DNA from: a virus
Lineage: Duplodnaviria; Caudoviricetes
Strand: one strand, 5' to 3'
IMG/VR virus record: IMGVR_UViG_3300025326_000030
Coordinates: 753-64,752 of that record
DNA: 64,000 nt
Under the pieces are notes generated by a model. The model was not told the origin of the DNA and ran no database searches. It was given only the letters and a program-made list of their open reading frames with translations. Position 1 is the stretch's first letter. Every line of letters starts with the position of its first letter. The position numbers and the translations under genes are program-made. Below, piece by piece: positions 6,384 to 64,000 of the stretch.

Positions 6384-8426
6384 ATGGTAAGTGATAAAGT
6401 GGCAGAAGGCAAGTTAAAACCTGATCAAGAAATCATTCGCAATTTTATTGGTCGAATGCAACTTGTGGCGCAACGACCCATGTTTGCATCGGGTATCACT
6501 TACCAGTCTGCGGTTAAGACCGGAGCGAGTATTCGGGATATTTGGCTGCATCGCTATTCTATTCTCCCTGGCGCAACCAATACCTATATAAATATTGCAA
6601 CCTCAAGAGAGTGGGCAATTCTTGGTTCTCCCCGTCAGGCGTCACGGGTTTTAGATCGCTTGAATCGGACCTACTTTATGGACGAACTGGGTATTCGTCA
6701 TGAAGGATGGGAAGATGTTATGTCCCGTATGTGTATGGACTGGCTCTCTATTGGTCGCTGTATGATTTCTTCCAAGATTCTGGTTGATAATGACTGGGAA
6801 CCCTTAGAATATATAGATTCTGCTGATGTTTTACCCCAAAATTCCAGAAATTCCAGAAAAAACATTATCTGGAACTATAACCATTTGTACTCTGGGTTAA
6901 GAGATATACCTCAAGAAAATATGTTCTTTCTGGATTGTTTTCGCATTGGCAAAACGGGAGTTCCAGTTGGTATTATTCCTTATCTTATCCCTGTTGCTCA
7001 TCTGGATTGGTTACTCCGCGAACATGACTCGATGCAACTGGACGGTAGAAAAATCCGTGATATTTTCTTTGTTGACGAGGGCATGGATGAGAATGTTGAA
7101 AAGGCAATTCTGGCGTCAATGGCAATGTCTAGCGGAGAAGACCCTTCTAAATGGCACATTCCATTAGTTGCCGTAGATCGCACAGATGCTTCAGTACCCC
7201 TTTCTAATTATTTTGCCAGATTTGGACTCTCTGAAATTCCGCGTGACTTTGATCGAGAAGATTTTCTTTCACGTTATGCCAAAGAGATTTCCTCTACACT
7301 TGGATTACCACTGGGACAGTTCTGGCATGATCCGCGTGGAACCAATCGCTCTCTTGAGCAAGTTACACAAGAACGCGCAACCCTCAAAGGTCCAAGTTAT
7401 TTCGTTCGTTCAGTTGAGCGTCTTATCAACAATTCTCCTTTTATGGGTCGTACCCCTAAAACGCGCTGTATTATCCAGTTTGAAGAAGAAACAGATACGA
7501 GCGCCTTACAGAACCAGGCTGCCGCATTCAAGGCTTATCTTGAAGGACTTGAAAAACTCCAAACCATTATGATGAATGCTCCTGAAAGTGAAAAACAGCA
7601 GTTCGATGCGGACCGCTGGATTGGTTTTATTGAAAAAAAGATGTTGATTCCTGCCAATGTAACGTTGGCAGATGTGGTTGCCAGAGAAGAGATGTCCCTT
7701 CAACGCAGTGCCGATGAAACCATGCAGAAGGGATGGGTCCGCATGAATCAGTATGGTTTGATTACCGAACGCAGACCGGATTTCCTAATTTCAAGACCCC
7801 CCATCCGACAAGTAACCGAAGAAGAAGGTATTGAGGGTTATTTCCTGCTTTCTTTTGCTAATTGCCCCGAACTTATCAATGTGGTGAATGAGAAGATTAA
7901 GCCCTTCTTTAGTGGTATTGAATGGGCAAGTCCTGAAACTTACCACTGCACGCTCGTGCATGGCACCTTCTCATGGATGGGACTGTCCCAGATTCAACAA
8001 GCTATGAAGACCTTTAAGGTAGACCACATGGGTTCGGTAGATATAGACCAACTTGGTATCTTCACTAATGAGGAAAATCAACAGACTCTTCACTTAAAGG
8101 TTCTTCCTTCTACCTATGGGTCCGTCCAGAGCAATCTGTTCACCCTTGCTTCACTCTGTGCTGAAAGTATTTCGGAATTTTCGCAACCCGAACTCTGGAA
8201 ACCTCATATCACCCTTGGTAGAGGTATGGATATTGCCATTCCTGAAGTACAGCACTTATTTGATTACTTCTCTGCTCAACCCACAGGAATCATCTTTAAT
8301 ATCGAAATCGCTGACCATCGTTATGAAGTGCTTTCTGCTCTTGGTGGTCAATATCGTAGTATAGACTTAGAAACTATAAAACATGACAGCTTACAACAAG
8401 TTAGCGCCCCAAGCCTCCCACTTTAA
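6384..8426 (+). CDS. Probable portal protein with C-terminal 2H phosphoesterase domain
   Basis: Position between terminase and protease/capsid, portal-like EISSTLGLP segment; C-terminal pair of HxT motifs YHCTL and PHITL. Confidence 0.65.
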   Translation: MVSDKVAEGKLKPDQEIIRNFIGRMQLVAQRPMFASGITYQSAVKTGASIRDIWLHRYSILPGATNTYINIATSREWAILGSPRQASRVLDRLNRTYFMDELGIRHEGWEDVMSRMCMDWLSIGRCMISSKILVDNDWEPLEYIDSADVLPQNSRNSRKNIIWNYNHLYSGLRDIPQENMFFLDCFRIGKTGVPVGIIPYLIPVAHLDWLLREHDSMQLDGRKIRDIFFVDEGMDENVEKAILASMAMSSGEDPSKWHIPLVAVDRTDASVPLSNYFARFGLSEIPRDFDREDFLSRYAKEISSTLGLPLGQFWHDPRGTNRSLEQVTQERATLKGPSYFVRSVERLINNSPFMGRTPKTRCIIQFEEETDTSALQNQAAAFKAYLEGLEKLQTIMMNAPESEKQQFDADRWIGFIEKKMLIPANVTLADVVAREEMSLQRSADETMQKGWVRMNQYGLITERRPDFLISRPPIRQVTEEEGIEGYFLLSFANCPELINVVNEKIKPFFSGIEWASPETYHCTLVHGTFSWMGLSQIQQAMKTFKVDHMGSVDIDQLGIFTNEENQQTLHLKVLPSTYGSVQSNLFTLASLCAESISEFSQPELWKPHITLGRGMDIAIPEVQHLFDYFSAQPTGIIFNIEIADHRYEVLSALGGQYRSIDLETIKHDSLQQVSAPSLPL

Positions 8427-8430
8427 GAGG

Positions 8431-8691
8431 ATGTATTTGCAAACCGATAAACAGCGACAGGTGTTTATCGAAGTTTGTCTGGAAACTGGCTCCATTTCAA
8501 CGGCTGCCTATTTTGTGACTGTTTATATCGAACTCCTGCGTGGTATCCGTAATGCCAAGGAATTGGGCTTTAAAGCCAATATGACCAATAGTGCCAGTCT
8601 TTATCATCTCAAGCGCTTGTCGGTCTATGGCTTTGTCACACGAATTGGTCGCTGTAAATGGCAAATGGAAGAAAAATCCAAACAAATATAA
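8431..8691 (+). CDS. Small winged-helix-like DNA-binding protein
   Basis: NAKELG...SASLYHLKRLSVYGFVTR pattern; start moved to ATG 8431 after the portal stop. Confidence 0.5.
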   Translation: MYLQTDKQRQVFIEVCLETGSISTAAYFVTVYIELLRGIRNAKELGFKANMTNSASLYHLKRLSVYGFVTRIGRCKWQMEEKSKQI

Positions 8692-8763
8692 GACCTTTAT
8701 ACTGTGAGCCTGATGGTATTGTTTATTATAGTAATGTAAGAACAAATGTATGTGTGAGGTTTT

Positions 8764-12267: not shown

Positions 12268-12576
12268 ATGGCTAATTGCTCGAAATGTCGCAGTCGGCGG
12301 CGTAGTGGTGGCAGACTATCACCCCATTTTGCGGTGAATCCGAATACTGGATTAGAGTCTGCCACCATTATTTTCGATGCAGATCGGGTACTTTGTTCTG
12401 AATCCAACTTTCGTTGTGTAAGGGTTACTCCTAAAGGCGGAAGTGTTGTGGTCTACCTGCGAGACCTGGTTTACTGGATTCAGCATGGCGTATCAGGCAT
12501 TACTTTTGTCCATTCTAAGGAAGAAGCGCGTTTTTTGGCGCTCTATCCAACCATTAGGCAGAGTGATTATGCGTGA
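12268..12576 (+). CDS. Hypothetical protein
   Basis: N-terminal CxxC plus basic stretch; in morphogenesis operon. Confidence 0.55.
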   Translation: MANCSKCRSRRRSGGRLSPHFAVNPNTGLESATIIFDADRVLCSESNFRCVRVTPKGGSVVVYLRDLVYWIQHGVSGITFVHSKEEARFLALYPTIRQSDYA

Positions 12577-12955
12577 ACTTATTCTCTATTTACTAACCAT
12601 TGGTTTCCTTGCACGGATTGCCTCAATCGAGTATGAGGGTCCTCTGGCAAGTTCGGTGAGGACTGTCCTCTGGAAAGACGCAGACCAATTTCCTTTTAGC
12701 AGACCCTTGAATCTATTTGATTGGTTGCGTAGACCATTTGGCATTTATACCATTAATGGTTATGTCTGGGAAGTTAAGGACAAAGTGTATCTGTGGTTTT
12801 GTCCCTTCTGCCTATCTTTTCGTATTAACCTGGTTTTACTGGTTCCCTATTTATTGGTTTCTGCTAACTCTTACAACTTGTTAGAGGTTGTGCTTCTGGT
12901 CTTTGCCCCCTCTGCGTTGGCGGGCTTTATGATAGGGAGTCTAAACCATGAGTGA
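12569..12955 (+). CDS. Membrane protein, DUF1360-like
   Basis: Hydrophobic helices with WFCPFCLS motif; start taken at ATG 12569. Confidence 0.5.
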   Translation: MRELILYLLTIGFLARIASIEYEGPLASSVRTVLWKDADQFPFSRPLNLFDWLRRPFGIYTINGYVWEVKDKVYLWFCPFCLSFRINLVLLVPYLLVSANSYNLLEVVLLVFAPSALAGFMIGSLNHE

Positions 12956-17075: not shown

Positions 17076-17688
17076 GGCAAACCTGGCAGAACTTGTTAGA
17101 GAAGTCAAACAGGATGCTAAACGACTGGTTAAAAAGGACGTAAAACGAATCAACCAGGAGATTAAGGATGTGGTAGATCGCTGGTTTGACGATTTTGGTC
17201 GAAACTGGACACCTACCTACACGCCTATCACCGACTCACGTAACTTTAAGGGTAAGAATGCCGCCAAAATCGCGGGTGTCTTTGACCGACGCCAACAAAT
17301 TTGGCAAGGTATCCAGGTAAATTATGATATTGGGGACAGTCCCCAAGTAAGTCCCATTGCCTTGAATGTAGACTGGGAAATTGGGATTACTGTCCTCAAT
17401 AATGAAGGCAAGACCCATAATCTGTGGTATTGGTTGGATCGAGGAACACAACCCTTTACCCAACAAGCTACCAGTCCTTTTCTAGGTCCCCAATACGCTG
17501 GACCCATAAAAGCAGGAAAAACCAGACCTGCCTTAGAAGCACGTGCATGGTCTTACGATATTAAGGATGCAGTTGTCGCTCATTTCAATCGGATGAAAGG
17601 CACCCTCGAAGATGATGGATGGGTCATCAGGTTTAGAATAGATGACCCAGAATACTCGGTTTATCCTGAAACCAAGGCGATTCGCTAA
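17056..17688 (+). CDS. Hypothetical tail-module protein
   Basis: 210 aa, TAATG coupling with tape measure; WYWLDRGT resembles HK97 gp10-like proteins. Confidence 0.5.
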   Translation: MSVKVNKANLAELVREVKQDAKRLVKKDVKRINQEIKDVVDRWFDDFGRNWTPTYTPITDSRNFKGKNAAKIAGVFDRRQQIWQGIQVNYDIGDSPQVSPIALNVDWEIGITVLNNEGKTHNLWYWLDRGTQPFTQQATSPFLGPQYAGPIKAGKTRPALEARAWSYDIKDAVVAHFNRMKGTLEDDGWVIRFRIDDPEYSVYPETKAIR

Positions 17689-20600
17689 TGGCTGGCTTAA
17701 CCTTTGAACTAAAGAACATTAGACCCTTTGAGGAAGAACTCAAGAATCTTGCTCAGATAGTGGATCGCGTCAATGCCACATTGGTATCTTCTCAAACAGG
17801 GTTTAATAATTTCAGTGAGTTTCTCGATACCGTAAAAGGGAAAATGGCAACCACTGGCGGACTAGATAAATCCACTGCCAACTTTACCCAGGTTTTTGAT
17901 TCTATCGTAGGTTCTCTTAAAGGTGCAGGATTAGTTACTACTGGTAGTTCGACTATTCTCCAAAGTGCCAAGGCAATTCAAATACTAATTTCTAGTATTG
18001 GGCAAATCAACACAGCAATTGCCTCAATGCCTGCCGAAGTCGATGCTGAACGAATTACACGCATGTCTACTATGTTAACTGCTATCTCAAAAGCCTTGTC
18101 AGGATTTTCACAGATTAGCGGTGTTTCTATACAAGGTGTTGGTTCTGGCTTGCAGTCTATTATTTCCGCGCTTCAAGAGATTATGGCATTTTTTACCCAA
18201 TATGCAGTAGTTATTGGTAATCGTTCCTTTCTTGATAGACTATTTGGTAGAAACCCTCAAACCGATCCAGTTGTACAAGCAATACAAAGATTAGGTCCCA
18301 TAGTATCTGTCATTTCAACTGCCTTGATTCCATTATCAAGGTTTAACTTTTCAAATCTAGTTAATGTTGGACCCACATTAAATGGCATCCTAAATTTCTT
18401 AAGAGACTTCGCGCTTTTTTCGTCCAATGTAGAGTTGACCAAAACGGTTCAGACCACGCGCTTCTTTTTTTTCAAAAAGACAACTATCGAAGCGGCTGAT
18501 TTCATCCAATCACTTATACCTGTTATGTCGGTATTGACCAAGGCGCTTTCTGCATTATCGGGAGTGACCATTAGTAGTGGTTCAGCCGCCAATTTTACTA
18601 ACTTATTACATGCCATAAGTCAAATAATTAATACTTTTGCAACACTAGATTTAACTAAGGCAGACACACAAACTTCTCGTGGTGGATTTCTTGGTTTCTT
18701 TAAACGAGAAGCAGGTTCTATTGGTATTATGGTTGAAACCTTTAAAGTTATTGGGAAAGCCCTAGATCAACTGGGATCATCTACCAAAAAATTGGGAACT
18801 AATCAAATCAAAAACTTAGATGATTTATCTAATGTTCTCGGACGCATTGCCAGAGTCTTTGAGAAATTTAAAGGAATAGGTGATGTTTCTGGAATGGCAA
18901 AACAAATTACTCTTGCAATGTCCGAGTTTTCTAAAATTGCTATGCCTACATCTGCAAAAACATCCTTTTCTACTAAATTGCTTGGAGGATTAACTGAAGG
19001 ATTATCGGATATTGTTCGAGTAGGGGGTACTCTTACAAAATTTGGGATAACGGCGACAACAGCAATTGCCAAGGGATTAACTCATCCAACCGTTTTGGGC
19101 GTCTTAAAAAAGGCGGGCAGCTTTCTCTTTGACGATTTTATTCAAGCCGCCAGAGACAAACTTGAAATGAGTTCTCCCTCACGAGTATTTATGCGAATGG
19201 GGACTTCTATAATTGATGGCCTTAGACAAGGTTTGACTGGACTCGCTTCACTTGCTACTGGTATGGCAAAAGGATTTGTAGATGCTTTCACTAACGGTCT
19301 ACGCAGTCTGCAAACGCAAATAGGAAATATAGGACAGTCCCTAACCACTACTGGGCGCAGCATGTTCTACGGAGGGCGAAATCTTGCTATCGCTGGCGGT
19401 ATCGGTGCACTCATTGCGGGTAATCGCACTCAGATGGTTGCCGAGTTTGACCAAACCCTTAATCAGATTCGTATCTTCGGAAACCTTCAGGGTGAAGCCC
19501 TTCAGGAAGTCTCGGATAAGGTTCTTCAGTTTAGTGCTGAAACTATCTTCGACCCACAACAAAGTGCAGCGGCATTCCTTGGTTTACAAAAAGCAGGTCT
19601 GAGCGTAATTGAATCGCTTCGCGTCTTGCCAGAAGTAGGCAATCTGGCAGCGGCGGGCAATATGGACCTGACACAGGCTACTATGGCAGTTGTGAGTGCA
19701 ATGCAAGCCTTTGGGTTATCTGTTGAAAATACTACGGACATCGTAGACAGTTATTCACAGGCAGCTAATCTCTCCACTGCTGAAGTAGCTGGACTTCAAG
19801 AAGGCATGTCTAATGTAGGTCCTATCGCTCACTCTTTTGGCTTATCTTTTGACCAGACGGTAGCAATTCTTTCCATGTTCAACGATGCAGGCGTTCGTGG
19901 TGCTGAAGCAGGCACCCAATTAAAGAGCATGTTGACCAATCTGACTCGTCCAACCAATGATGTGCAAAATGCCTTTAAGGAACTGGGGGTCTCACTTACC
20001 GATTCTGAGGGTAACTTTAAGGGTATCCAGCAGATTATCAATGAACTCTCTCACAGCATGTATGATATGAAAACCATTACGGTACAGGTTGGGGGAGGAA
20101 TTGCTGAAGAAAATAAGCAAATGCTAGAAGATGCGGGTGATGCTTATGCCGCTGCTGATCGACAATTGCGCCTAACCGACGCGGGCTTGCGAACTACTTC
20201 TGCTCGTCGGCGTACAGAACTAGAAGCCATTCGCGTCAATGCAACAGGAGTTATTGCCGAAATTACGGGTAGTCAAGAAAAAGCCCAATATGTTACTACT
20301 CAAATTACTCGCTCTCAGTCTGAGAACTTCCGTACTATTCAGGAGTTGGCAGGTCGCTATGGTCAGATTGGCTTAAGTATTTTGCTCTCTCAAGATGCTG
20401 ATGCAATTGACAAATTCGTAGCTGAAATGGACACGGTTCCCACTGCGGCAAAAGTAGCCTCTGAAATGATGAATACCTTTAAGGGCAGAATCGAATCTCT
20501 CAAGGGTTCTATTCAGACCTTAACTATTAAGGCGTTCATGCCCCTTATGAATCATGTACTGAAACCCATCTTTGATGTTCTGATTCGAGTAGTGAATGCC

Positions 20601-23600
20601 TTTGCATCGTTACCAGGACCGATCTTAGCAATCTTCGCTGGCATTCTTGTATTGGGAGCAGCCCTTACTACCTTTATTGGAATTGGTATGTTGCTAATCA
20701 GTGCTGTATTGATACCATTGGGAATTATGTTTACGGCAGTTAGCATGGCTATTGGTGCAGTTCTCTTTGTTATCACTAACCCATTAGGGTTAATTGCCAT
20801 GTTCGCAGGTGTTGTTTTAGCAGGAGGAGCATTAATCATTTTCTTTACTGCCCTAACAGGCGCAATTGCCTTTGTTGGTGGTGCATTTGCTATTTTCATT
20901 AATGAATTTCGCAAGAGTGAAGAGGCAATGGATTCTCTTAAGCGATTTACAGATGCTATCAAGAATTTCTTTAGTGCCGTGAAGGAGGCTATTAGTACAC
21001 TATTTGATTTTATTGGTGCCTTTAGTGATGTGATGGGACAGTCCTCAAGTGTAAACAATGCAATGCAACCCGTTACCAACTTCTTCGATGGCATTACAGA
21101 GAAAATTAATAAAGCTACTCAGGGCTTACAAGAATTCAAACAATTCCTAGACCTACTATCAGATACTCACGCATTTACTCAGGGCGGTATTCCAGATACA
21201 ACGGCTGCCATTAGTGATCAGATAAATGCACTAGATAGGGCAATTGACGCTTATGACCAATTAGAGGGAGCTACTACGCAAGCCCAGACTACGCAACCAA
21301 CTCATACCGTTGCATCAGGAGAGAGCATTTGGTCAATTGCCCAAGCTAATAACATGACTGTTCCAGAATTACTTGCACTTAATCCAGATATTCCAACTAT
21401 ACAAACACAAGGAACAATTAGCACTTCTCAAGAGGCTGTTCAGGGGTTAACCGCACCAAGAACTATTCCAATTATTCGTCCTGGTCAGCAAATTAATCTC
21501 GCCCCTGCGCAGTCTCAAAATCAGGAATTATCAGACCTGATTAAACAACGACAAGACCTTATTGAAAGACAGCGGTTTATCCAGAAAGACGAAGAGGCTT
21601 TCTACAGCGGCATTTCGGAAGAACAACGTTTTACCACAGGACTGCAATCACGAATTGAGGCTTTCTCGAAAACTGGATTGGGGCAAAAAATATTTGGTAT
21701 GTTTGGTATCAAGGGAGATGATATTGGAAGTTTCCTTTTTGCTCTAGCACCCATAGAAGGAACCTTTAAGGATATTGGTGTCGCAATAGATAAAGTTAAG
21801 AAAAGTATTGTTGGTCTTTTCACTGGGAAAAATGGATTAGGCGATATTGCGCTCAATATACAACGCCTTTTTGGTGAAGGCAGTGTCCTTTTTGAGCAAC
21901 TTACCGGAGCAGATATTTCAGACAGATTACAGAAAATCCTACTTGAGGGAACCACTAAGGATTTGTTGGGATATATTGGCGACATAGTTCTAAACTTCTT
22001 TATTTCACTTGGTGGTCTTATTGTTGAAGGCATGTTATCACTTATCCGTTCTATGGCAAAAAGCTTGATAACTTCTTTAACCAGAATGTTTAGAGAAGCG
22101 GTGGGAGAAGAAGTTTATGGCAATGTTCTGGCTGGCTTTTCGCGGTTAGGTGAAAAATTCAGAGAATTTCGGGATTCACTTGCAGAGTTCGCACAATCTG
22201 AACAAGGGCAAGCACTTATTTGGCTACTTAAACAAATTGGGGCAGGATTACTTATCGTTGCGGGAATTCTTGGCGGTATTCTAATTGTAAATATTACCAT
22301 GATGATGAGTGTTATCCGTCCCATTCTGGACGTATTGGGTAATCTTGCACTTATCATTCAGGGTATTGCTCAGGGAGATTGGACTAAAGTTACAACTGGT
22401 CTGTCTGGACTGGGAGAAGCCCTTATAGACCTGCCTTTGTCCATTCTTGCTGGAATTACTGATGGGCTTTCCATTATCGCAACTTTTCTGGGTGATGAAG
22501 AACTCGCTGGCAAATTTGATCGCGCCGGAGTATCTATCAAAAAGTTTGGCGAGGATGTTAAAGCTACCGCAGGTGAGGGCTTTGATAAGATTATTGCTTT
22601 TGTGGCAGGTCTCAATATTGACTGGGAAGGAATTGGCACGAGCATCAGCGGCTTCTTTGATAAGATAAAAGTTGCGGTTGGCGAATTTGATTTTGGATAC
22701 AACTGGACTAAGCTTAAAGAGTTTGTCAGTGCGGTTGGTGATTATGTCAGCACCCTAAATCTTGAAAAACTGGGAACTGATATTGCCACCTTCTTTACAG
22801 CTATCAAAAATTCAGTTGCGACCATTAATTTTGGGGACGCATGGGGAGATGTAAAAGAATTCCTTAGTGGTATGCTAACTGCAATTAGTGGGTTTACATT
22901 ACCAGTTGGCATAAGTGATTTGTCTGGGGTACTGGCTCCTATTTCGAGTTTTATTGATACCCTTCAGGGCATTATTGATAAAGTTGATGATACCTTTATA
23001 GCAGGTTTCAATGAAGTTAAAGGCGTTATCAATAGCGCAAGCGGATTATTGGGCTTGGGCGGGGGAGTAGAGGAAAGACCACAAGGTCCTAGACAACCTA
23101 CTACTGGCATAGACACCTTTGCGCTGGCAACTCAAGGAATAACAACCTTGATAGATCAGGAATCTATTGACGCAGCTATGCAACCTCTCATTGATAAGCT
23201 AATAGAAATTGGCACTCTCGCAGATACGACAGTCTCTAACATTTTAACTTACTTCTTCAATATGCCCACCAGTCTGACCATTAGCGTGGATAATATTAGC
23301 GCCACACTGCAACCACTTATCACCAAGTTTCAGGCGGTTGAATCGGCAGTGCGCGGAGCAGCAGATTCTATTAATCTCTTCCGACAACTAATGGGCGGCG
23401 GGGCAACTGTTCCTATTCCACAACATGCCTATGGCGGCAGTATTCCAGCAGGTCAATTAGTTGAGTTTAATGAACAACGCAAGAATGTACCTTTTGAAAC
23501 CTTTCAGGTTGGTAATCGCAATTATCTGCTTTCCTCACAACCTGGGTATATGCACTCACCTTTAGGGGGAGGCATGACTGGCGGTAACATTACTGGGGAT

Positions 23601-24853: not shown

Positions 24854-24863
24854 GACTGTCCCC

Positions 24864-37857: not shown

Positions 37858-37915
37858 TTCAGACTCCTTTTTACTTATGTGAGAGTACGTATAAGGGCAC
37901 CACTACTGCGAACCA

Positions 37916-38406: not shown

Positions 38407-38426
38407 TTTTCTTTCCCTCCTATGGG

Positions 38427-45776: not shown

Positions 45777-46782
45777 TAGTTGGCTCCGTATTATCTGGGA
45801 TTAAGAATTGCCAGTTCACAATAGTGGTGGCATAAGACCCATGTTCTACCCGAAAGAATGTGCCACGAGTCATCAGGAAATTAGCTACACCGATGCTTCC
45901 TGAATATTCGTAGTAACCCCGAAGGAGTTCGGCATAGACTTCCAGATTTCCCTTGAGGTATTCTCCCGTCTTGTACCCAGTGGGGGCAAGTACACTGGCT
46001 TGTTTCTGGGGAACGCTGATTGCATTGGTAGCATGGTTAGATGGATCGGGCTTTTCCTCAAGATAATCATAGGCAACTTGCCATGCTATTTCATAGATTT
46101 GATTGTAACTTTCGGTGCTGATAAGGGCTGTGTGCTGACTGTTGATTGCCCATTTGTCTGTACCGCCAAGCCAACTTGCAACAGATTCCCACTTTGCATT
46201 GAGTACGGCGAAATAGAGGTCATCACCTCCAACCTGATAAACGTGTCTGGTGGTTGCCAAAGCGTTAAACACGACCCAAGAGAGCATTGCACTAAAGCCA
46301 TCTCCAAATTCTCCTTCACTCGACTCATGGTAAACCACCAAAGCAACAAGTCTCACCTCTTTTTCGGAAAGAGACAGTAAGCGACTGGGAGTTTTGAGGA
46401 CAGTCCTATTGTATTGGTCTATGCCTCTCCCATATTCAAACCCCGAAGCCGCTTCGCGCAAGACCAACAGCTTCACTTGCTCTGGGGTGAGGTCATCCAC
46501 ATCTCTCAAGGCGCGATTTCCGAAAGCCATCGCACATTGATAGGGGAAATACAGCTTGGGCATAACCATTGTTTCCTGTTCCCACTCCTGGTTCGATTCC
46601 CCTGCGGTATCTTCTGCCAACTTAATCTCATCTCCCATTTGCAAGGAAAGATAATATTGCTGCCAGTATTCGTAGGGGTTATACGAAAATTGTGGAACAG
46701 ATTCAATCTTGCACCAATCACCATTAATGGTCATGTTCTGCGGTCCAACTAGTAAAGATAGGATAAGCATCCATTTCAGCAA
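45760..46782 (-). CDS. Secreted protein with SleB/Hydrolase_2-like region
   Basis: Signal-like N-terminus; VALVVYHESSEGE and DPSNHATN resemble cell-wall hydrolase motifs. Confidence 0.4.
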   Translation of the reverse strand: MLKWMLILSLLVGPQNMTINGDWCKIESVPQFSYNPYEYWQQYYLSLQMGDEIKLAEDTAGESNQEWEQETMVMPKLYFPYQCAMAFGNRALRDVDDLTPEQVKLLVLREAASGFEYGRGIDQYNRTVLKTPSRLLSLSEKEVRLVALVVYHESSEGEFGDGFSAMLSWVVFNALATTRHVYQVGGDDLYFAVLNAKWESVASWLGGTDKWAINSQHTALISTESYNQIYEIAWQVAYDYLEEKPDPSNHATNAISVPQKQASVLAPTGYKTGEYLKGNLEVYAELLRGYYEYSGSIGVANFLMTRGTFFRVEHGSYATTIVNWQFLIPDNTEPTNAKTE

Positions 46783-48508: not shown

Positions 48509-48723
48509 GACTTAAACTTCCCTTCGGTTAGGATAACGAAGTTAACCCAGACCACTATGAGAGTGAAGATAATATTGATAACCACAATCACGGCAGTCAA
48601 AAAGGCGAAGCGACCTAGCGAAAGCCTATTGGTGATGTAGTAAATCAAAACTATTACTTCTACAAGCCACGCGGGAATAGATACCGCAATGGCTTCCAAC
48701 AAGGATAAGGTTCGTTCGGTCAT
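48505..48723 (-). CDS. Small membrane protein
   Basis: Two transmembrane-like segments. Confidence 0.5.
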   Translation of the reverse strand: MTERTLSLLEAIAVSIPAWLVEVIVLIYYITNRLSLGRFAFLTAVIVVINIIFTLIVVWVNFVILTEGKFKS

Positions 48724-48968
48724 GCTTTTTCCTTAATGGCTACTAGCACCTCTAGCCCCAAATCAGATAAGAAATAATGGGCTGCTTTGTTGTCTCCCGA
48801 ACGCTCCAACATGCCCGCCGCCTCTAAACCATAAACAATCTTCCTGGCTTGAGACTGTGACATGTCCCACTTCTGGTAGAAGTCGTGGGCAAAGCGTTCG
48901 GTTCGCACACCAGCCTTATTATAAAACCATTCCAAAACTTCGATTAACTTTTGTCGGTCTTTGTTCAC
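48720..48968 (-). CDS. Winged-helix DNA-binding protein
   Basis: MSQSQARKIVYGLEAAGMLER...YFLSDLG. Confidence 0.6.
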   Translation of the reverse strand: MNKDRQKLIEVLEWFYNKAGVRTERFAHDFYQKWDMSQSQARKIVYGLEAAGMLERSGDNKAAHYFLSDLGLEVLVAIKEKA

Positions 48969-50402: not shown

Positions 50403-50808
50403 TTAATTCCTCCATTATTTCAAAGTAAACTTTTAGACCTGAACAATAGGGCTTCAGGGTTTCCAGAGCCTTGAGGACAGTCCCATAACCACAGGACTGA
50501 ATCTTCAGACTCAAGATCGCCTTCTGCCCACTTCTCGTGTGCGCTTTATCATGGCACACACGGCATAACACACAGCTTAATTCGGGGACAAAGCTCAACC
50601 TTCTCGCTTCCCCAGTGGTTCTCCCCCGATTGACAATCTCATGGAGATCGTCAGCGGGGACAGTCCCACACCATTCACAGAGACCAGCAGACTCACGCAG
50701 GAGTTTCGACTTCAGCTTCATGCGTTGGTAAGCAAGTGCGGAGTTCTTCATTCGGTATCCATTTCTGCTGGTCTTGGTCATAAATATAGAAGGTTCGGAA
50801 AATGGCAA
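50374..50808 (-). CDS. HNH-like zinc-binding nuclease
   Basis: CEWCG...DLHEI...LCRVCH. Confidence 0.6.
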   Translation of the reverse strand: MPFSEPSIFMTKTSRNGYRMKNSALAYQRMKLKSKLLRESAGLCEWCGTVPADDLHEIVNRGRTTGEARRLSFVPELSCVLCRVCHDKAHTRSGQKAILSLKIQSCGYGTVLKALETLKPYCSGLKVYFEIMEELNEENLAKLG

Positions 50809-51084: not shown

Positions 51085-52560
51085 TCAATAACCAACTTTG
51101 GGAAAAGTAAAATACTCATTAATGGTACGAATTGGATGGGGCAGTTTCCCCTTCTTGATGTTATTCCCGATGTAGAAGTTGAAGACCAAGAAGGATTCCC
51201 AATCGCCTTCCTTGTGCCAGAACATCTCTTCGCCGAGAGCGTTTCTGGCTATCTTGCCTCTTTTACGGTCTTCTGCGGTTTCATAGAAAGGCAGGTCTTT
51301 CAGGGCGACTAACCGCTCGATACGAAGAATAGCTTGCGCTCGGATAGCAGCATCTTTGGCATAGCGGATAGAAATTTCATCGGTTTCGTAGTTGGTTTTG
51401 GGATCACCCTGAGCAGACATGATAATAGGAACGTCATGAATTTCAGCCAATTCCTTCACTGCGCTGGCAACCTGATTAGTGCCTTCCACTATGTCTTTGG
51501 AATACTGCTGCCAACGTATCAGTTGGTAGTAGTCAATCATCACCACGAGGATGCGTCCCTTGGCTTCTGCCAGCAGTTTACGCTTGGCAATTTCCACACT
51601 TATATCCTCTGGGGTGGCACCCACACAATGGAAGTAACTAATGGCTCCCATTGTTTTCTCGGCGCGGGCAATGTCTTCGTCCAACTTATCTGCCAACTCT
51701 TTCCAGGGTGGCGCTCCAAGGTCGAGGAATATCTGTTCTCCATTTTTGTAGTAGAACCCTTGCTCAAGGTAGTTAAAGGGGATTTTCATGCGACGGGACA
51801 TATAGCGACTGTGCATGGTGAGCGCATCAGTTTCGAGGTGGCAGAACAATACATCGAAACCACCAAGGCGATGGGCAATATAGTCTGCCGAATACGCCAT
51901 GATGTTGGTCTTCCCCATTTTGGAGATGGCTTCGATGATAAGGACTTCCTTGCGCTTGATGAAAGGCACGATTTCCCATGTGGCTTCAAAGGGTAGGCGT
52001 GGACCAATGGCATTTCCAGCACGCGCTTGCGCCAGATTGCCCGCTACATACTTTCGCCAGTCTTTTGCCAGATCATGCCCACCAACTGAAGAAAAAGACT
52101 TCTTCTTAGGTGCGGCTTTGTGAAGTCCCGTTACCAACTTATCATAAGCAGCAGTAATCCCCACCTTGCCATCTTCAAGGTCTGCAATCCCCTTTTCGAG
52201 GACTGTCCTCAAACGAATGGCTTCCTGATAATCTCTGAAGGCAATTACGTAAGAAGTGATAAGTCCGTCAGTGGTGGAAAAACCAAGAAGGGTTTCCAAT
52301 AAAACCCTTCCATTCTCTTGCCAGTGAGGGTCATTATCCAGAAAGGGGATAACCTCTTTGGGTAAGGGTATCCCCCCTGCCGCAGCAAGTTTGAGCAAGA
52401 CCTCAAAGACAAAGCGTTCAAATGCCATGTCTGAGGGGAAAATGTCGGGGTCAAGTTGGCGCAACTCATAGAGCTTGGTAGTATCCTCCCCAAAAGAGTT
52501 CGCCAACATCCTCTTAAGGTTCTCTTTTTGGTTATCGGTTAACATCATTTTCTGATTCAT
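51085..52560 (-). CDS. DnaB-like replicative helicase
   Basis: Walker A AISKMGKT, HLET, Walker B MIDYYQL, KELA...VPIIMSAQ. Confidence 0.85.
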   Translation of the reverse strand: MNQKMMLTDNQKENLKRMLANSFGEDTTKLYELRQLDPDIFPSDMAFERFVFEVLLKLAAAGGIPLPKEVIPFLDNDPHWQENGRVLLETLLGFSTTDGLITSYVIAFRDYQEAIRLRTVLEKGIADLEDGKVGITAAYDKLVTGLHKAAPKKKSFSSVGGHDLAKDWRKYVAGNLAQARAGNAIGPRLPFEATWEIVPFIKRKEVLIIEAISKMGKTNIMAYSADYIAHRLGGFDVLFCHLETDALTMHSRYMSRRMKIPFNYLEQGFYYKNGEQIFLDLGAPPWKELADKLDEDIARAEKTMGAISYFHCVGATPEDISVEIAKRKLLAEAKGRILVVMIDYYQLIRWQQYSKDIVEGTNQVASAVKELAEIHDVPIIMSAQGDPKTNYETDEISIRYAKDAAIRAQAILRIERLVALKDLPFYETAEDRKRGKIARNALGEEMFWHKEGDWESFLVFNFYIGNNIKKGKLPHPIRTINEYFTFPKVGY

Positions 52561-53448: not shown

Positions 53449-53785
53449 TTTCTTTCTCCTTTTCTTGGGGACTGTCCTCAACCACAAAGCGCATTAAGTC
53501 ATTAAGAATGTCTTCCATGAGAGATTGCATTTCTTCAAGTGCGCTGATAACACACAGGTCATATTCAGGGGAATTGCGAAATTCTTCTTCGCCCCATCCC
53601 TCAAAACTAGGTTCGCTGTCTACGGCAAGAGACCCATAACGACAACTTACCCAGTAAATGTGAGGCTCCTGTACGGTCTGCAAACGGATACTCACGCACA
53701 CATCGTTAGGGGTTAATTTACGGATTCGCATTGTATCACTCATTCTTTCGGACTTGTTGCTCATCGTCAACGGCAACCGCTTCAT
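53435..53785 (-). CDS. Hypothetical protein
   Basis: Packed operon ORF; start uncertain. Confidence 0.45.
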   Translation of the reverse strand: MKRLPLTMSNKSERMSDTMRIRKLTPNDVCVSIRLQTVQEPHIYWVSCRYGSLAVDSEPSFEGWGEEEFRNSPEYDLCVISALEEMQSLMEDILNDLMRFVVEDSPQEKEKENELL

Positions 53786-53878: not shown

Positions 53879-54484
53879 TCATTCTATTTCTCTCCCATAA
53901 TTCAGTAAATACTTCACATATTCACTTGGTTCCTTTGGTTCTTGTGGTTTTTTTGAACTCAATGCAAGAACTTCTTCGGCTAAATATTCTAGCTGGTCTA
54001 ACGAAATGATTGTAACAACTCCATCAACAGAGTAAAGCACTTCGTAAGTCCACGATTTAACACCATAAGACTGTCCCATATCACTGACTGTCATATAGTG
54101 AGGTTGTTTGCGAAGTGTAATAGTACGGATTTCGCCACTGGGGAATCGAGCAGTCAATTGGGCAGTTTCATCTGCCATTTCAATCCGAGGACAATTCCGA
54201 TAATAGTCACCTAATGGATAACTAAGAATAACCAGATGGTTATACCCCCAATCGTTATAAATAGTTAAGCTAATCCAATTGGGGCTGAGTTTTTCCTTGA
54301 TTTCCAGAACGCGTTCTGCTTTGTGATAGACAGTACAATCAGCATTTTCGCATTGCCCATCCCTAAGCGAAGCATAGCAAAATCCGCAGCAAGATTGTCC
54401 TGTAGTCGGATGGGATACCTGTGTAGGACAGTCCTCTAGGTGTTTCAATTCTTCATGCAACTGAATAAAAGTTTCTTGGTTCAT
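53879..54484 (-). CDS. Hypothetical protein with Cys cluster
   Basis: CCGFC...C...C; GGAGGAG ribosome-binding site. Confidence 0.6.
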   Translation of the reverse strand: MNQETFIQLHEELKHLEDCPTQVSHPTTGQSCCGFCYASLRDGQCENADCTVYHKAERVLEIKEKLSPNWISLTIYNDWGYNHLVILSYPLGDYYRNCPRIEMADETAQLTARFPSGEIRTITLRKQPHYMTVSDMGQSYGVKSWTYEVLYSVDGVVTIISLDQLEYLAEEVLALSSKKPQEPKEPSEYVKYLLNYGREIE

Positions 54485-55324: not shown

Positions 55325-56893
55325 TCAGAGTTCGTACTTATTTACAGCATCTACCTGTGTACCCAGACCATTAGCGGTTAGCGCAATGAACTTTAGGATG
55401 CTATCACTCCATCCGTAGATGTAATACACATCTGGCTCGTTTTGTGGTGCAACCGCATGGCGATAGGGAGCCAACTGGATCAAGAAGGCTTTTGCCTTGG
55501 GCGAAACATGGCGCTTATACTGCTGCCACAGTTCCACGAAGCCACTGCCTACCCATTCCGCGCTGTCGGTGATACCAATGAAAATGTCCACTTTGGTCCG
55601 ATCATCTATCAATTGTTTGATGGGCGCACTCAGACTAGTACCCCCGCCACCAATGGCGGCAAGGCGATTAGCAGTAGTCATCATGCTATCCTGTGCGGAG
55701 AGCTTGATAGGCACCACGCGAGACTCAAAGGGCAAGACCAAGCTCATCTTGCTCTTCTTCAGGAGCGCAGCCGCGAAAATACCCGCCACGTCAATGAAGC
55801 GCGTAGCACCCTTATCAGTCAGTTGCCCACTCATGCTCCCGCTTACGTCTGGGGCAATGCAGATTACGCCCTCAAGGTCAGGCAGGTTCACAAAACTTTT
55901 GTCAATTGCACTGACCAACGACTCACTAACCGCCTGCTCAACATGATTCTGAGGGTTGAACATCTTATAAGCCGTGAACAAACGGAAGGGCAGAATCTTG
56001 GCTTTATGGATATTCTCTGCGTCATTCATGCGCGTTGCCACATACGCGGCGTTATCTTGATCTGCCAAGACCCCTGCCTTTTGCAAGGTATTCAGGTGGC
56101 GCATGAGTGCCATATAAGGCATTTGACGCATGAGAGAAGACCACAGGGATTTGTCGGGTTGAATCACCCCCGTGACAATCTCGTAGGGCAGCTTGCCAGA
56201 GGCAATCAATCCCTCGTATTCGTCAGGGGGTGATTTCTTAAGCATTTCAAATGCCTCTAGCTGAGGCGTAAGTGCGCGACTGCGGGTATCAAGCCACTTA
56301 TCGGGTTGAGTTAGATACATGAAAATAGTGTTCTGCTTCTCACTGGTGGTCTTGGGATGCACTAGACGCAGAATATCCCGAATAGCATACCCCTGACCAC
56401 CTGTAGCGTACTTCAGGGCGTGGTATTCACTCAAATTCAGAAGCCAATTGGCAATCATGCGTTTAATGGCACGTCCCATGCCCTTAGAGCCCACCACGCC
56501 ACCCCGAACAATCTCCACGAAGTCCGCCAGATCACCAGGAGTTAGAATCACACGACTGAAAATCTGTCGGGCAATCTGGGGGTGTCGTTTAGCCAGATGC
56601 GCCAACCCAATAACGGGTTGCATACGCATCAATCCCTCATTGCGGGCATAGACAATTGCCTTTGCCGCAAACTGGGGACTGTCCTGCGTCATTTGGGCAT
56701 GGAGACCCAGAGATTCTCGGAGCAACTTCTCTTCAGACGCATAGAACGTACCCCCAAGCGTATTGGTGAGAAGCACCTGAAGGTAAGCCTCTTCATCACT
56801 GCGTTGGAAAGTAGGAAACCCTTCATAATTCACCTCAGTGGTTGCATCGTAAGGATTCAAATTTTTAACGAACTTATTTTGTACGCGCCCCAT
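55325..56893 (-). CDS. rsr: Ro60/TROVE domain RNA-binding protein with C-terminal vWA domain
   Basis: N.EG...F, GTFYAS, YARNEG.MR, KY...GY..RDILRLVHPK, QMPYMALMRHLNTL, ILPFR...AY, MIDAS DVSGSM, GGGT, ITD, YGWSD. Confidence 0.95.
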   Translation of the reverse strand: MGRVQNKFVKNLNPYDATTEVNYEGFPTFQRSDEEAYLQVLLTNTLGGTFYASEEKLLRESLGLHAQMTQDSPQFAAKAIVYARNEGLMRMQPVIGLAHLAKRHPQIARQIFSRVILTPGDLADFVEIVRGGVVGSKGMGRAIKRMIANWLLNLSEYHALKYATGGQGYAIRDILRLVHPKTTSEKQNTIFMYLTQPDKWLDTRSRALTPQLEAFEMLKKSPPDEYEGLIASGKLPYEIVTGVIQPDKSLWSSLMRQMPYMALMRHLNTLQKAGVLADQDNAAYVATRMNDAENIHKAKILPFRLFTAYKMFNPQNHVEQAVSESLVSAIDKSFVNLPDLEGVICIAPDVSGSMSGQLTDKGATRFIDVAGIFAAALLKKSKMSLVLPFESRVVPIKLSAQDSMMTTANRLAAIGGGGTSLSAPIKQLIDDRTKVDIFIGITDSAEWVGSGFVELWQQYKRHVSPKAKAFLIQLAPYRHAVAPQNEPDVYYIYGWSDSILKFIALTANGLGTQVDAVNKYEL

Positions 56894-57874: not shown

Positions 57875-58244
57875 GTTTACTTTCTCCTAATTCTATTTTA
57901 CGGTCTGTGGGACTGTCCTCAGATGGGTCTTCACTATCATAAAAATCGTCAGGCGGACTACAGGGGGTACGCATTTCAAGGACGCGAACACAATTGTCTT
58001 TAGAAAAAAGATTCGACAAGTCCTTAACCATCCACGCATCCCTGAATTCATGCCATTCTTGTAATACCCTGGTGGTTTTAGGCAATTTACTGGCTTCTAC
58101 CTGTCCTTTGGGTGTCATGTGATCAACCAAGTGGCACCTAGAGACAAGGTATTCATCTACCATGTCAGGGACAGAAATCCCTAGATGGACAAGTTCCTCT
58201 AAGAAATCCAAGAAATCTTTTCTGAAAAAACTCTCTTCGCTCAT
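57867..58244 (-). CDS. Hypothetical protein
   Basis: ATGA coupling to initiator gene. Confidence 0.55.
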   Translation of the reverse strand: MSEESFFRKDFLDFLEELVHLGISVPDMVDEYLVSRCHLVDHMTPKGQVEASKLPKTTRVLQEWHEFRDAWMVKDLSNLFSKDNCVRVLEMRTPCSPPDDFYDSEDPSEDSPTDRKIELGESKHE

Positions 58245-59260: not shown

Positions 59261-59263
59261 TGC

Positions 59264-62209: not shown

Positions 62210-62226
62210 TCTCCTATTTTATTGGT

Positions 62227-63489
62227 TTATTCCTTATTCATTTTATCCAAGAGAAGGGTGAGCTTCTCTAACACAACTGCAAGCTGAACCATCATGGCAG
62301 ACATATTGCTGATTGCCGTGATGAAGGCTTGCATAATTTCGGGTTGAACCACAGGAGGAACAGAGGGTGTTACCACTGGCGGTTCCTCTATTGGTTCTGT
62401 AGGGGTGACTACCGGAGGCTCTACAATCACCACAGGTGGGGTCTCAGGCTCTTTTGGTGGTATATCCGTAACCAATAGGGCGGCATACTTGTCTAAAACG
62501 CTAGTGCCGCGAATGTCGAAAGCTGCCCAATCCGAATTTGGATCAGACCCATAGGTAAATACCGCGCCGCCTACACAGAAGTCCTTGTAGGTTTCCATCT
62601 GGTCATGTGCGTATTTTAATTCTTCGGCATAGACCTGTTTGGGGTCATTGCCAAAACCAAGGCGCGACCAATCTTCTCCCCAAGTGCGCCATGACCGTCT
62701 TCCCTGACCGCCAGTATAGAGCGTATAGGTTTCACGTCCGGCATTGTCAATGCCCAACTCGGTAAGGACAAACTTCAAATCGCCATACCCCATTTGCTTC
62801 AGGGTTTCGTGGTCTCTCACAAAGCGAAAGGTTAACCATGAATCCATTACTTCGGGTCCGAGAATGGACCTGTTTTCACGATACCACTGGGGAGGTTTCA
62901 GCAACTTGTAATCATTGGGAGAACTGATTGCTTGCGCCATGCCGTGCCAGAGATTAATCATCATTCCAGCATAGCCATGATAACCAATAAGGCTATCGGT
63001 ATCTCGAATGGCATCTAGTAGTCCGCTTTCTTTTGCCCATTGCCAATTGCGGTCATTGCCTACGGCAGTATTCAGAACAACGGACTTCAGCCCATAGCGA
63101 TCTCTTAGGGTTCTCGCCCGCGCAGCTTCAAAATCATAATACTGACGGATGTTCCCGATTTCGTTATGACCTTCTACATAGAACTGGTTTACATGACTAG
63201 AGATAGATAAGGTGGCAATATCGCCCCTTACCCAATTGAGCCAGGTTTCTACCCCGTCCTGGGGGTTTGTGTAAGTTACGAACTGATCGGGATTATCGCC
63301 ACTGCCTGAAACGCCCCACCAACATCTCTCAATTAGTTTAGTGGTTGGGGGTACTTGCTTGGCAATTTCATCTAAATATCCAGCATTGCCCAAAGACTTT
63401 GCTACAGTACACCCTAAGCGATTCACCTCTGTGGCAACCTCAAGGGCATTTGGGTAGTGCATGATCCCTAGACCAACGTAGCTTTTCAT
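62227..63489 (-). CDS. Glycoside hydrolase-like TIM-barrel protein with Pro-rich linker
   Basis: Clan A-like NE (EGHNEI), H.Y (YHGY), TE.G (LTELG) motifs; PPVV repeats; start taken at MKSYV. Confidence 0.6.
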   Translation of the reverse strand: MKSYVGLGIMHYPNALEVATEVNRLGCTVAKSLGNAGYLDEIAKQVPPTTKLIERCWWGVSGSGDNPDQFVTYTNPQDGVETWLNWVRGDIATLSISSHVNQFYVEGHNEIGNIRQYYDFEAARARTLRDRYGLKSVVLNTAVGNDRNWQWAKESGLLDAIRDTDSLIGYHGYAGMMINLWHGMAQAISSPNDYKLLKPPQWYRENRSILGPEVMDSWLTFRFVRDHETLKQMGYGDLKFVLTELGIDNAGRETYTLYTGGQGRRSWRTWGEDWSRLGFGNDPKQVYAEELKYAHDQMETYKDFCVGGAVFTYGSDPNSDWAAFDIRGTSVLDKYAALLVTDIPPKEPETPPVVIVEPPVVTPTEPIEEPPVVTPSVPPVVQPEIMQAFITAISNMSAMMVQLAVVLEKLTLLLDKMNKE

Positions 63490-63490
63490 A

Positions 63491-64000
63491 TTAAATCTCC
63501 AAGTCATTGAACTCATCTTCGCTTGGGGGTTCAAGTTGTGGAACGTCCATCTTCTTCAAACCACCAGGAAGCGAGTCAGGTAGCATACCTACCTTTTGTC
63601 CATATTGTATCATTTCTGGTGGCAAATGGTCATACTTTCCTAATAGCTTCGCCATTGAGATGTGCGCATTCCAATCGGGGTGTTCGTCGGCGCTTTTGGT
63701 GGCAGTGGTAATTTGAAGTTGGTCAGCCTTGAATTCTTCAATCTCGCTTCGGGGTCTAGGGGTGAATTGTTCCTGTGGGACTGTCCCCAAGACATTCACC
63801 TGCACTTGCTGGCTTTGTTGATTGACCACTAGAAGTCGGATACCTTCAAGGAAAGCCTGGACGAGATTGGCGTTGGCTGAACCCAGTTGGGCAATCGCCT
63901 CCTTCATTTCCTCAAGGTGAATTTTCTGGAATTCCATGAATGCCTGCTGATTAGCATTAAGGTGAGCGAAAATGGCTTCATCACGGGTATAGAAGTAGGC
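63491..64000 (-). CDS. Hypothetical protein, probably truncated by the window edge
   Basis: Frame of ORF 63491-63937 stays open to position 64000. Confidence 0.5.
   Translation of the reverse strand, partial: AYFYTRDEAIFAHLNANQQAFMEFQKIHLEEMKEAIAQLGSANANLVQAFLEGIRLLVVNQQSQQVQVNVLGTVPQEQFTPRPRSEIEEFKADQLQITTATKSADEHPDWNAHISMAKLLGKYDHLPPEMIQYGQKVGMLPDSLPGGLKKMDVPQLEPPSEDEFNDLEI

Follow-up and report, generated by a model that had tools for sequence, protein, structure and literature searches.

Why should an uncultured soil phage carry the same short palindrome 22 times, nearly always inside its genes? This question is raised by a 64,000-nucleotide stretch of phage DNA, referred to below as the window, which corresponds to bases 753-64752 of the linear 64,752-base IMG/VR record IMGVR_UViG_3300025326_000030 (about 53% complete according to CheckV). 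The palindrome is RGGACWGTCCY, with the core GGACWGTCC. Here we show that it is a real and strongly selected feature, and that the selection concerns the DNA itself. In addition, we propose with moderate confidence that the 22 palindromes are sites for a dimeric binder encoded by the phage lineage, and that their closest parallel is formed by the 17-bp repeats of the Cluster O mycobacteriophages.

The core GGACWGTCC has 22 matches in the window, against 0.28 expected (100 dinucleotide shuffles, the largest count being 2), and all 22 are retained when the outer purine and pyrimidine are required, for which 0.05 matches are expected. The core is the commonest 9-mer of the record; the 752 bases that lie outside the window add no further copy, and the reversed control pattern is absent. 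These results bear out the original prediction, which had listed the 22 sites together with their flanks: every coordinate and every sequence is correct. The same prediction had named codon-preserving shuffles as a check, with similar counts speaking against selection. In synonymous-codon shuffles, which keep the proteins and the codon usage, the mean count was 1.5 and the maximum 4 (n=300), and shuffling the codon order gave a mean of 1.2 and again a maximum of 4 (n=300), so that counts similar to the observed 22 were not obtained. These figures even include one intergenic site, which sits in unshuffled DNA and is therefore present in every codon shuffle.

Eight bases of the core are invariant among the 22 sites, and the ninth, in the centre, is T (13 sites) or A (9 sites), never C or G, with no strand bias in either arm of the phage. 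Outside the core, position -1 is G (12) or A (10) and position +1 is C (13) or T (9). One base farther out, the flank statistics are those claimed before: position -2 is G (12) or T (10) at 22 of 22 sites, and position +2 is C (13) or A (7) at 20 of 22, with one T and one G besides. A weaker preference for T-T on the left and A-A on the right extends the consensus to 17 bp (T-T-K-R-GGACWGTCC-Y-M-A-A), and three copies are perfect palindromes over 17 or 19 bp (Table 1). There is hardly any penumbra of imperfect sites. No pair of GGAC and GTCC is found with a different spacer between 0 and 7, and one-mismatch variants number 11 in the record versus 15.5 expected under a base-composition model, and 10 in the window versus 14.1 +/- 3.4 in the codon shuffles, which is at or below chance. 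The motif holds approximately 20.9 bits of information, compared with the 11.5 bits that suffice to locate 22 sites when only the phage is searched and the 17-18 bits required amid a host genome of 5-8 Mb; ascertainment by the exact core inflates the information of the core, and the scarcity of near-misses shows this inflation to be small.

Furthermore, the complementarity between left and right flanks is no higher than that of independent draws at each of 8 flank positions. The half-sites thus vary independently, and hairpin potential is not under selection; such independence is what would be expected if two subunits make base-specific contacts. The density is one site per 2.9 kb, the closest pair (50475 and 50658) is 183 nt apart, and there are no doublets. 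A repair ratchet of the very-short-patch type was also considered as a source of the sites. No sign of it was seen, C-to-T-type one-mismatch variants being present (4 of 11), in what are small numbers.

The palindrome has left an imprint on the proteins of the phage. Twenty-one of the 22 sites lie within open reading frames (ORFs), in genes of both arms and in phases 0, 1 and 2, and the peptides encoded there are G[QL]S, [GR]TV[LP] and xD[SC]P, respectively. The use of all three frames and both arms, together with one site in a gap between genes, had been read as selection on DNA, and the shuffles and the peptide counts agree with that reading. In phase 1, the pattern [RGW]TV[LPHQR] has 10 places in the proteome, where 2.8 are expected from amino-acid composition, and 10 of 10 are encoded by the motif. 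The corresponding figures are 7 of 8 places for xD[SC]P in phase 2 (2.4 places expected) and 5 of 22 for G[QL]S in phase 0 (12.0 expected). From codon usage alone, 0.1-0.2 realised sites would be expected in each phase. In phases 1 and 2 the peptides are themselves 3.3-3.6 times commoner than amino-acid composition predicts, which implies that the motif was installed by non-synonymous as well as by synonymous change. The constraint is therefore one that acts on DNA and overrides the protein sequence. The gain or loss of sites in orthologous genes, proposed earlier as a further check, could be followed at two copies. Site 36921 lies in an ungapped alignment to cyanophage homologues and hence arose by substitution; site 37268 belongs to a part of the N-terminus that the homologues lack.

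Further evidence comes from related phages. A database of 5.8 billion proteins holds six relatives of the terminase protein TerL, and a metagenome scan provided two relatives with DNA, L085 (17.4 kb, TerL 45% identical) and L086 (3.3 kb, TerL 44%). The first of these is syntenic with window positions 3244-11432, the packaging and head module. A search for the motif in related phages had been suggested, and in L085 it gave a divided answer: the exact core GGACWGTCC is absent (0 copies in 17.4 kb), and a variant palindrome of the same architecture and density takes its place. This palindrome, AGTACSGTACT, occurs 7 times in 17.4 kb versus 0 in 200 shuffles, that is, once per 2.5 kb; by our reading of the ORFs, four copies are in ORFs and three between them. 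Both motifs share the frame RG-N-AC-N-GT-N-CY, and they differ at the third base of the half-site (G in the window, T in L085) and at the centre (W versus S). A single AGGACGGTCCC is also present in L085, and the 3.3 kb of L086 contain one AGTACAGTACT, the expectation being about 0.003. A one-step change of the word between phages whose TerL proteins are 45% identical, with architecture and density retained, fits a recognition protein that diverges along with its sites, and it is not what unrelated host motifs would be expected to give. Individual copies show no conservation of position: the region between the portal and TerS genes has a copy in L086 and none in the window or L085. When L085 is compared with the portal-like protein of the window, its copy at 2682 falls within an insertion of 10 aa.

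In the other viral and metagenome DNA examined, the motif is not widespread. Unrelated viral and metagenome loci contain 3 copies of the core in 1.02 Mb. The 17-mer TTGGGGACWGTCCCCAA is present in 8 IMG/VR stretches, and all five that were tested have a single copy of the core. For L085, a 15-mer was traced to 65 stretches, of which 61 carry GTACNGTAC once; in none of them is AGTACSGTACT present more than once.

L085 is peculiar in other respects as well. Along L085:1-17429 the asymmetric word CCGCAAA occurs 40 times, the expected number being 3.4; its copies use either strand and every frame, and 3 of the 7 palindromes (2692, 14687 and 15772) lie at most 3 nt from a copy of it. The window record has 10 copies of this word in 64.7 kb, and it is not enriched in three cyanobacterial plasmids. 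A TnpB gene (OrfB_IS605, with a Cas12f-like TNB domain; L085:7502-8611, minus strand) adjoins TerL in L085, and the window has no counterpart there.

Which protein might read the palindromes? Three small helix-turn-helix (HTH) proteins, starting at 3244, 8431 and 48720, had been put forward as binders. Pfam confirms the first as an HTH protein, and family and fold identify the second (here delimited as 8383-8691) as a winged helix; the third does give winged-helix matches, but only below threshold. Small DNA-binding candidates that are conserved in the module shared with L085 are the first two only, the protein at 3244-3438 sharing 38% identity with the C-terminal portion of L085 10883-11296. 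On circumstantial evidence, we regard the 102-aa protein encoded at 8383-8691 as the leading candidate reader of the palindrome.

This protein has no Pfam match of its own. Its family is small: an exhaustive profile search of 1.84 billion representatives gave 24 proteins at E<=1e-3. Of 17 aligned members, 7 match MarR_2 and 6 HTH_24, and others match models of the ArsR/IclR type. An AlphaFold model made with the family alignment (pLDDT 88.8) predicts a helix-turn-helix with a beta wing; the single-sequence fold was poor (pLDDT 56) and was not used. The top Foldseek matches are CzrA, CadC, HlyU, SmtB and MarR, which are dimeric repressors of the ArsR/SmtB and MarR families, and the centromere binders TubR and AspA are matched as well; the E-values of these matches are weak (3e-3 to 2e-2), the probability being about 1. 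Leads from the protein atlas point the same way but fall below the reliability bar. In homodimer prediction the protein scores 0.48 versus 0.23 for the best control, which passes the mark used for a homodimer but may reflect memory of solved ArsR/MarR dimers; at least 68% of the contacts are common to the runs, and the partner pLDDT is at least 85. Among proteins of solved structure, 20 of 30 pairs and 1 of 23 single chains attain this mark.

The homologue in L085 (2027-2566) occupies the same place after the portal-like gene and is a tandem double of the winged-helix domain; tandem duplication is a common way of hard-wiring a dimer. In both phages a palindrome lies upstream of the start of the winged-helix gene, at 403 nt in the window and at 116 nt in L085. 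A word-based protein search retrieved only a 96%-identical variant, P0007, which differs by four N-terminal substitutions; its occurrence in protein collections indicates that sampling elsewhere has caught a close sister strain. When P0010 and P0009 were used in single-protein scans, no family member with DNA context was retrieved.

Based on these observations, we favor the following explanation. The palindromes would be read on double-stranded DNA by a two-fold symmetric, sequence-specific protein of the phage lineage, one subunit reading each half-site (T-T-K-R-G-G-A-C) and the centre needing only A or T. Selection would have written a site about every 3 kb, at the cost of the protein sequences overlapped. 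The reader would be the winged-helix protein encoded at 8383-8691, acting as a homodimer, and in L085 its gene would have become a covalent tandem and the palindrome would have changed to AGTAC-S-GTACT. Late in infection, the reader may mark phage DNA as opposed to host DNA, and so organize or condense it for packaging, or protect or silence it. Such late self-marking is suggested by the location of the gene in a structural, presumably late, operon, and by a motif with sufficient information to be expected hardly ever in a host genome of several Mb. The original prediction had left two options, sites of a dimeric phage protein or a host palindrome adopted by the phage; the variant motif, the independence of the flanks, the approximately 21 bits and the conserved winged helix favor the former, short of proof. 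A more specific version, which we consider rather unlikely as a whole, would be that the palindrome is a private mark read by the portal-adjacent winged helix, that mark and reader co-diverge (GGAC-W-GTCC to GTAC-S-GTAC) in the way immunity specificities do, and that they serve organization, packaging or co-injected protection.

Several observations weigh against this explanation. What ties the winged-helix protein to the motif is circumstantial, and the part of the genome that is missing from the record, about half, may encode the true binder or an enzyme. The motif has its information focused on the central 9 bp; dimers with an ArsR/MarR-type winged helix usually contact bases about 4-8 bp to either side of the centre and leave the centre free. 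The tandem domains of L085 are about a quarter identical to each other and its palindrome is perfectly symmetric, which fits a homodimer better than a pseudo-dimer. The relatives examined are two in number, and one of them is 3.3 kb long. Moreover, the spacing of the sites is slightly more even than random (coefficient of variation 0.70 versus 0.96, P=0.047) and the first 8.7 kb are free of sites (P=0.04), both of which are marginal. Finally, the motif may originate from the host, the main rival explanation, which we hold to be unlikely.

A host origin could take the form of an iterated palindrome in the manner of the cyanobacterial HIP1, or of a site for a host factor (Chi-type, or of a nucleoid protein), which the phage would share because one mutational or selective pressure acts on both; palindromes would then differ among related phages that infect different hosts. 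This alternative, improbable as we judge it, has some points in its favor. HIP1 and its variants are described in coding and non-coding DNA, as selected and as differing among cyanobacterial lineages (PMC5861425). The CCGCAAA excess of L085 resembles a genome-wide compositional signature rather than a set of operators. The phage also avoids a very broad range of palindromes, which points to a host rich in restriction systems: GGCC occurs 5 times versus about 155-166 expected, and there is no copy of CYCGRG (39 expected), GATATC (26), CCATGG (24), GGCGCC (18), ATGCAT (15-19), GGTNACC (14), CGATCG, GACNNNGTC or CAGCTG (12 each), CTGCAG (10-12) or CCTNAGG (10). L085 likewise avoids GGCC (0 versus 36 expected). 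Such avoidance would, we presume, fit a filamentous cyanobacterial host. However, cyanobacterial plasmids of Oscillatoria nigro-viridis PCC 7112, Nostoc PCC 7120 and N. punctiforme, which span 260-408 kb and were taken as proxies for the host, have 1, 1 and 0 copies of the motif, respectively, and no excess of CCGCAAA. HIP1 itself is absent from the phage (0 copies of GCGATCGC, as of CGATCG), and the words of the window and L085, differing at one half-site position and the centre, are better explained by one diverging recognition protein. A glycosyltransferase query against plasmids gave no cyanobacterial match, and the use of Shine-Dalgarno sequences (48 of 89 genes) does not settle the host. 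On the other hand, the 17-mer TTGGGGACWGTCCCCAA is highly iterated in other bacteria: it is found in at least 120 bacterial genome stretches, from Coriobacteriia, Clostridia, Bacillaceae, Aminicenantes, Sphingomonadales and others, with no cyanobacteria among the 120 matches listed, and RGGACWGTCCY occurs 66, 100, 145, 153 and 10 times in the five genomes tested. Yet its density in bacteria is at most about one per 15 kb, the phage being at least five times denser, and the bacterial copies inspected are intergenic, often forming inverted doublets 33-40 bp apart (e.g. L128:5472-5528). At 4 of the 120 listed loci the motif flanks an IS200-like Y1 gene (Y1_Tnp, E 6e-15 in the one scanned; e.g. 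L204:6183-7184). These copies are like repetitive extragenic palindromic (REP) or REPIN elements with a REP-associated tyrosine transposase (RAYT), and that one REP word is common to several phyla is noteworthy in itself. The motif, which had been expected to point to the host, is thus abundant in some bacterial genomes as a REP-like repeat and does not reveal the host. The identity of the phage and REP words may be a coincidence; it is not evidence of a host origin, although it keeps that explanation in contention.

These bacterial elements raise the possibility that the phage palindromes are themselves miniature mobile elements, REP/REPIN-like or very small dispersed repeats, inserted via a transposase of the Y1/RAYT type. 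The TnpB gene of L085, the copy at 2682 in a 10-aa insertion and the window copy 37268 in a stretch absent from homologues would agree with this. Nevertheless, we find it very improbable, given that 21 of the 22 copies sit in ORFs, that conservation covers only 9-11 bp, that doublets and hairpin covariation are lacking, that copy 36921 arose by substitution, that the 64.7-kb record contains no Y1_Tnp (PF01797) transposase, and that bacterial copies almost all read GGGAC...GTCCC where the phage has R and Y. Somewhat better placed, and still quite unlikely, is the recognition site of an enzyme, such as a methyltransferase or base modifier, a nicking or homing-type nuclease, or a recombinase, that would need to mark or cut at intervals along the chromosome. 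All-or-none recognition, with 22 exact copies and one-mismatch variants at chance, would suit an enzyme. So would the compactness of the information in the central 9-11 bp with R...Y ends, a pattern closer to type II recognition sequences than to operators. Genes are present in the phage for two HNH nucleases, two family-2 glycosyltransferases, four S-adenosylmethionine (SAM) methyltransferase-like proteins and a DUF488 protein. However, these methyltransferases are of non-DNA families, matching small-molecule or sugar O-methyltransferases, and the three DNA methyltransferase families searched for (PF01555, PF00145 and PF02086) are absent from the record. Phages usually avoid the sites of restriction-type enzymes rather than accumulate them, and a symmetric nick site would yield double-strand breaks. 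Selection at the level of protein (a peptide motif) or RNA (a hairpin) is barely credible. The sites are transcribed and the palindrome is identical on either strand; but the three frames give three unrelated peptides, one copy is intergenic, and a stem of 4-5 bp with a loop of 1-3 nt, which the flanks do not extend, would be too weak to fold.

The record itself gives some context for the palindromes. The window has a G+C content of 42-47% and a coding fraction of 94.8%, and its genes are laid out in two arms, pointing rightward until approximately 34.2 kb, except for the leftward TerS/TerL pair, and leftward beyond. The genes and sites are listed in Table 1. The portal-like gene, which has no match in Pfam or PHROGs, owes its label to position and synteny. 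A C39-like peptidase and a VWA protein are also encoded. A megablast of 12 kb of the window gave no nucleotide-level match to the public phage collection, and the best isolates of that collection have TerL proteins about 25% identical (tblastn); single-protein and profile queries with TerL found nothing above 25% identity in IMG/VR. The phage DNA was found in sequencing runs labelled as soil and groundwater metagenomes, with no RNA runs among those listed. Four other runs gave contigs that hardly differ from the window. In other-run contigs, divergence is dense at 51970-52081 (13 differences in about 110 nt) and at 63394-63451 (about 19 differences and two indels in about 60 nt), the remainder being identical, and these stretches may represent mosaic exchange with a related strain. 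Only one divergent piece, a 320-nt contig of another run with 13 differences, spans a palindrome; it retains site 52200, which alone means little.

Some other parts of the gene content deserve mention. The leftward block 34194-47373 holds two family-2 glycosyltransferases, two Methyltransf_24, one Methyltransf_11 and one more methyltransferase-like gene, as well as the C39-like peptidase and DUF5131, and may serve the modification of glycans of the virion or the cell surface. The Cluster O paper, too, names an O-methyltransferase and two glycosyltransferases (PMC4351075). The Ro60/TROVE protein has a vWA domain, and the separate VWA protein is encoded at 2092-2691 on the plus strand; tRNAs aside, no Rfam family, Y RNA included, reaches the threshold in the window. 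Six tRNA genes (Leu-CAA, Ser-TGA, Asn-GTT, Ser-GCT, Tyr-GTA and Leu-TAG) are clustered at 2705-3193 on the plus strand.

Table 1. Positions, in the window, of the 22 palindrome copies, the candidate binders and the other genes named in the text.
Feature	Position	Strand	Phase (peptide)	Location or remark
Copy 1 (GGGACTGTCCC)	7980..7988		0	portal-like gene 6384-8426
Copy 2	12660..12668		1 (RTVL)	ORF 12443-12955
Copy 3	17334..17342		2 (GDSP)	ORF 17056-17688; perfect 17-bp palindrome
Copy 4	19332..19340		0 (GQS)	2018-aa ORF 17688-23744
Copy 5	21036..21044		0 (GQS)	ORF 17688-23744
Copy 6	23840..23848		0 (GQS)	ORF 23741-24853
Copy 7	24853..24861			last base of the stop codon of ORF 23741-24853 and gap before 24864-28727; sole copy outside an ORF body
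Copy 8	32154..32162		0 (GLS)	ORF 32091-33245; perfect 17-bp palindrome, non-consensus flanks
Copy 9	34086..34094		1 (GTVL)	ORF 33221-34204
Copy 10	36921..36929		1 (GTVL)	virion protein gene 36094-37416(-)
Copy 11	37268..37276		2 (GDSP)	36094-37416(-), N-terminal stretch
Copy 12	39615..39623		2 (GDSP)	glycosyltransferase gene 39236-39991(-); perfect 19-bp palindrome
Copy 13	43688..43696		1 (GTVL)	DUF5131 gene 43623-44465(-)
Copy 14	46398..46406		1 (RTVL)	ORF 45760-46782(-)
Copy 15	50475..50483		1 (GTVL)	ORF 50374-50808(-)
Copy 16	50658..50666		1 (GTVP)	ORF 50374-50808(-)
Copy 17	52200..52208		1 (RTVL)	DnaB-like helicase gene 51085-52560(-)
Copy 18	53469..53477			overlap of ORFs 53050-53487(-) and 53435-53785(-)
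Copy 19	54426..54434		2 (EDCP)	ORF 53879-54484(-)
Copy 20	56676..56684		2 (QDSP)	Ro60/TROVE gene 55325-56893(-)
Copy 21	57910..57918		2 (EDSP)	ORF 57867-58244(-)
Copy 22	63778..63786		1 (GTVP)	ORF 63491-64000(-), runs off the window end
Best candidate binder	8383..8691	+		102 aa; winged helix with an ArsR/MarR-like fold; follows the portal-like gene immediately
Second candidate binder	3244..3438	+		64-aa HTH protein; Pfam HTH_3 and HTH_7
Third, weak candidate binder	48720..48968	-		82-aa protein; adjoins the RecA gene
TerL	4332-5837	-
TerS-like HTH protein	5824-6309	-
Portal-like gene	6384-8426			putative, from position and synteny
Probable tape measure	17688-23744			2018-aa ORF, judged by size
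Virion protein gene	36094-37416	-		best relatives in Synechococcus cyanomyoviruses, 36% identity
Glycosyltransferase gene	39236-39991	-
DUF5131 gene	43623-44465	-
RecA gene				adjoins 48720-48968
DnaB-like helicase gene	51085-52560	-
Ro60/TROVE gene	55325-56893	-

If the explanation that we favor is true, it would describe how phages can mark self-DNA independently of base modification. The more specific version, if true, would amount to a bar-code system for the phage chromosome that is strong enough to reshape proteins, and it would also offer a mechanism for the Cluster O repeats. The case is unusually clean, in that recognition is all-or-none, nearly all copies are intragenic and the encoded peptides are measurably enriched. 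Furthermore, the one-step variant of the motif in the relative, together with the rearranged candidate reader, makes the question directly testable. Genome-wide palindromes are known in few phages (Cluster O, stoperators) and in cyanobacteria (HIP1), and the symmetric, non-promoter kind is without an established function. A full-text literature search, supplementary files excluded, found no description of a GGACWGTCC motif in prokaryotes or phages, the motif strings turning up only in eukaryotic primers and similar entries.

How does the palindrome compare with these and other known systems? The sites of MatP (matS), Noc and SlmA are tens of palindromes of 12-14 bp, many of them intragenic, which are read by a dimeric protein that organizes or protects the chromosome. 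Those systems are cellular and their binders are known, unlike the present one, and the record has no ParB_N domain (PF02195; the MatP and SlmA families were not searched for). The stoperators of Cluster A phages are about 25-35 copies of a short motif on both arms, bound by one phage protein, and motif and protein co-diverge among related phages. They are asymmetric, oriented with transcription and mostly intergenic, and belong to temperate phages with an immunity repressor. The present motif is likewise short and located on both arms, but it is a perfect palindrome, has no orientation and is intergenic at 1 of 22 sites; a tyrosine integrase (PF00589) is absent from the record, incomplete as it is. 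REP elements are extragenic, longer, hairpin-forming and usually arranged as inverted doublets. The identical 17-mer TTGGGGACWGTCCCCAA is REP-like in Coriobacteriia, Bacillaceae, Aminicenantes and others, whereas the phage copies are intragenic singletons with degenerate flanks that do not covary, in a record without RAYT.

HIP1 is an even palindrome of 8 bp in cyanobacterial chromosomes which is hugely over-represented within and between genes and in all frames, is kept by selection, has lineage-specific variants, reaches more than one copy per gene and is suspected of a role in chromosome organization (PMC5861425). The present palindrome is odd, 9-17 bp long, phage-borne and found once per 2.9 kb, and the HIP1 octamer GCGATCGC is absent.

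The closest resemblance is to the repeats of Cluster O mycobacteriophages. According to the paper that describes them, these are 17-bp dyad repeats, TGTTCGGNNNCCGAACA, with 34 invariant copies in Corndog, of which 14 are intergenic and 10 more are near gene starts; they are absent from the host genome, and they were proposed to be sites of a dimeric protein, a transcriptional role being judged unlikely and the function left open (PMC4351075). Both systems have tens of copies across the phage genome (about 65-70 kb in Cluster O), invariant half-sites, few near-misses and no meaningful orientation, and some Cluster O copies are also inside coding regions. They differ in word and spacer (7-3-7 there, 4(8)-1-4(8) here). 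The phage is not of the Cluster O lineage: its motif is not TGTTCGGNNNCCGAACA, it has no nucleotide match in the phage collection, and even the best TerL matches there share about 25% identity. Its lineage and host are unrelated to those of Cluster O, and a distant relative shows a changed motif. Thus, the palindrome resembles the Cluster O repeats without being one of them, and what is new relative to those repeats is that it is almost wholly intragenic (21 of 22 copies inside ORFs, in all frames) and that its imprint on the proteome, in the form of enriched peptides, can be measured.

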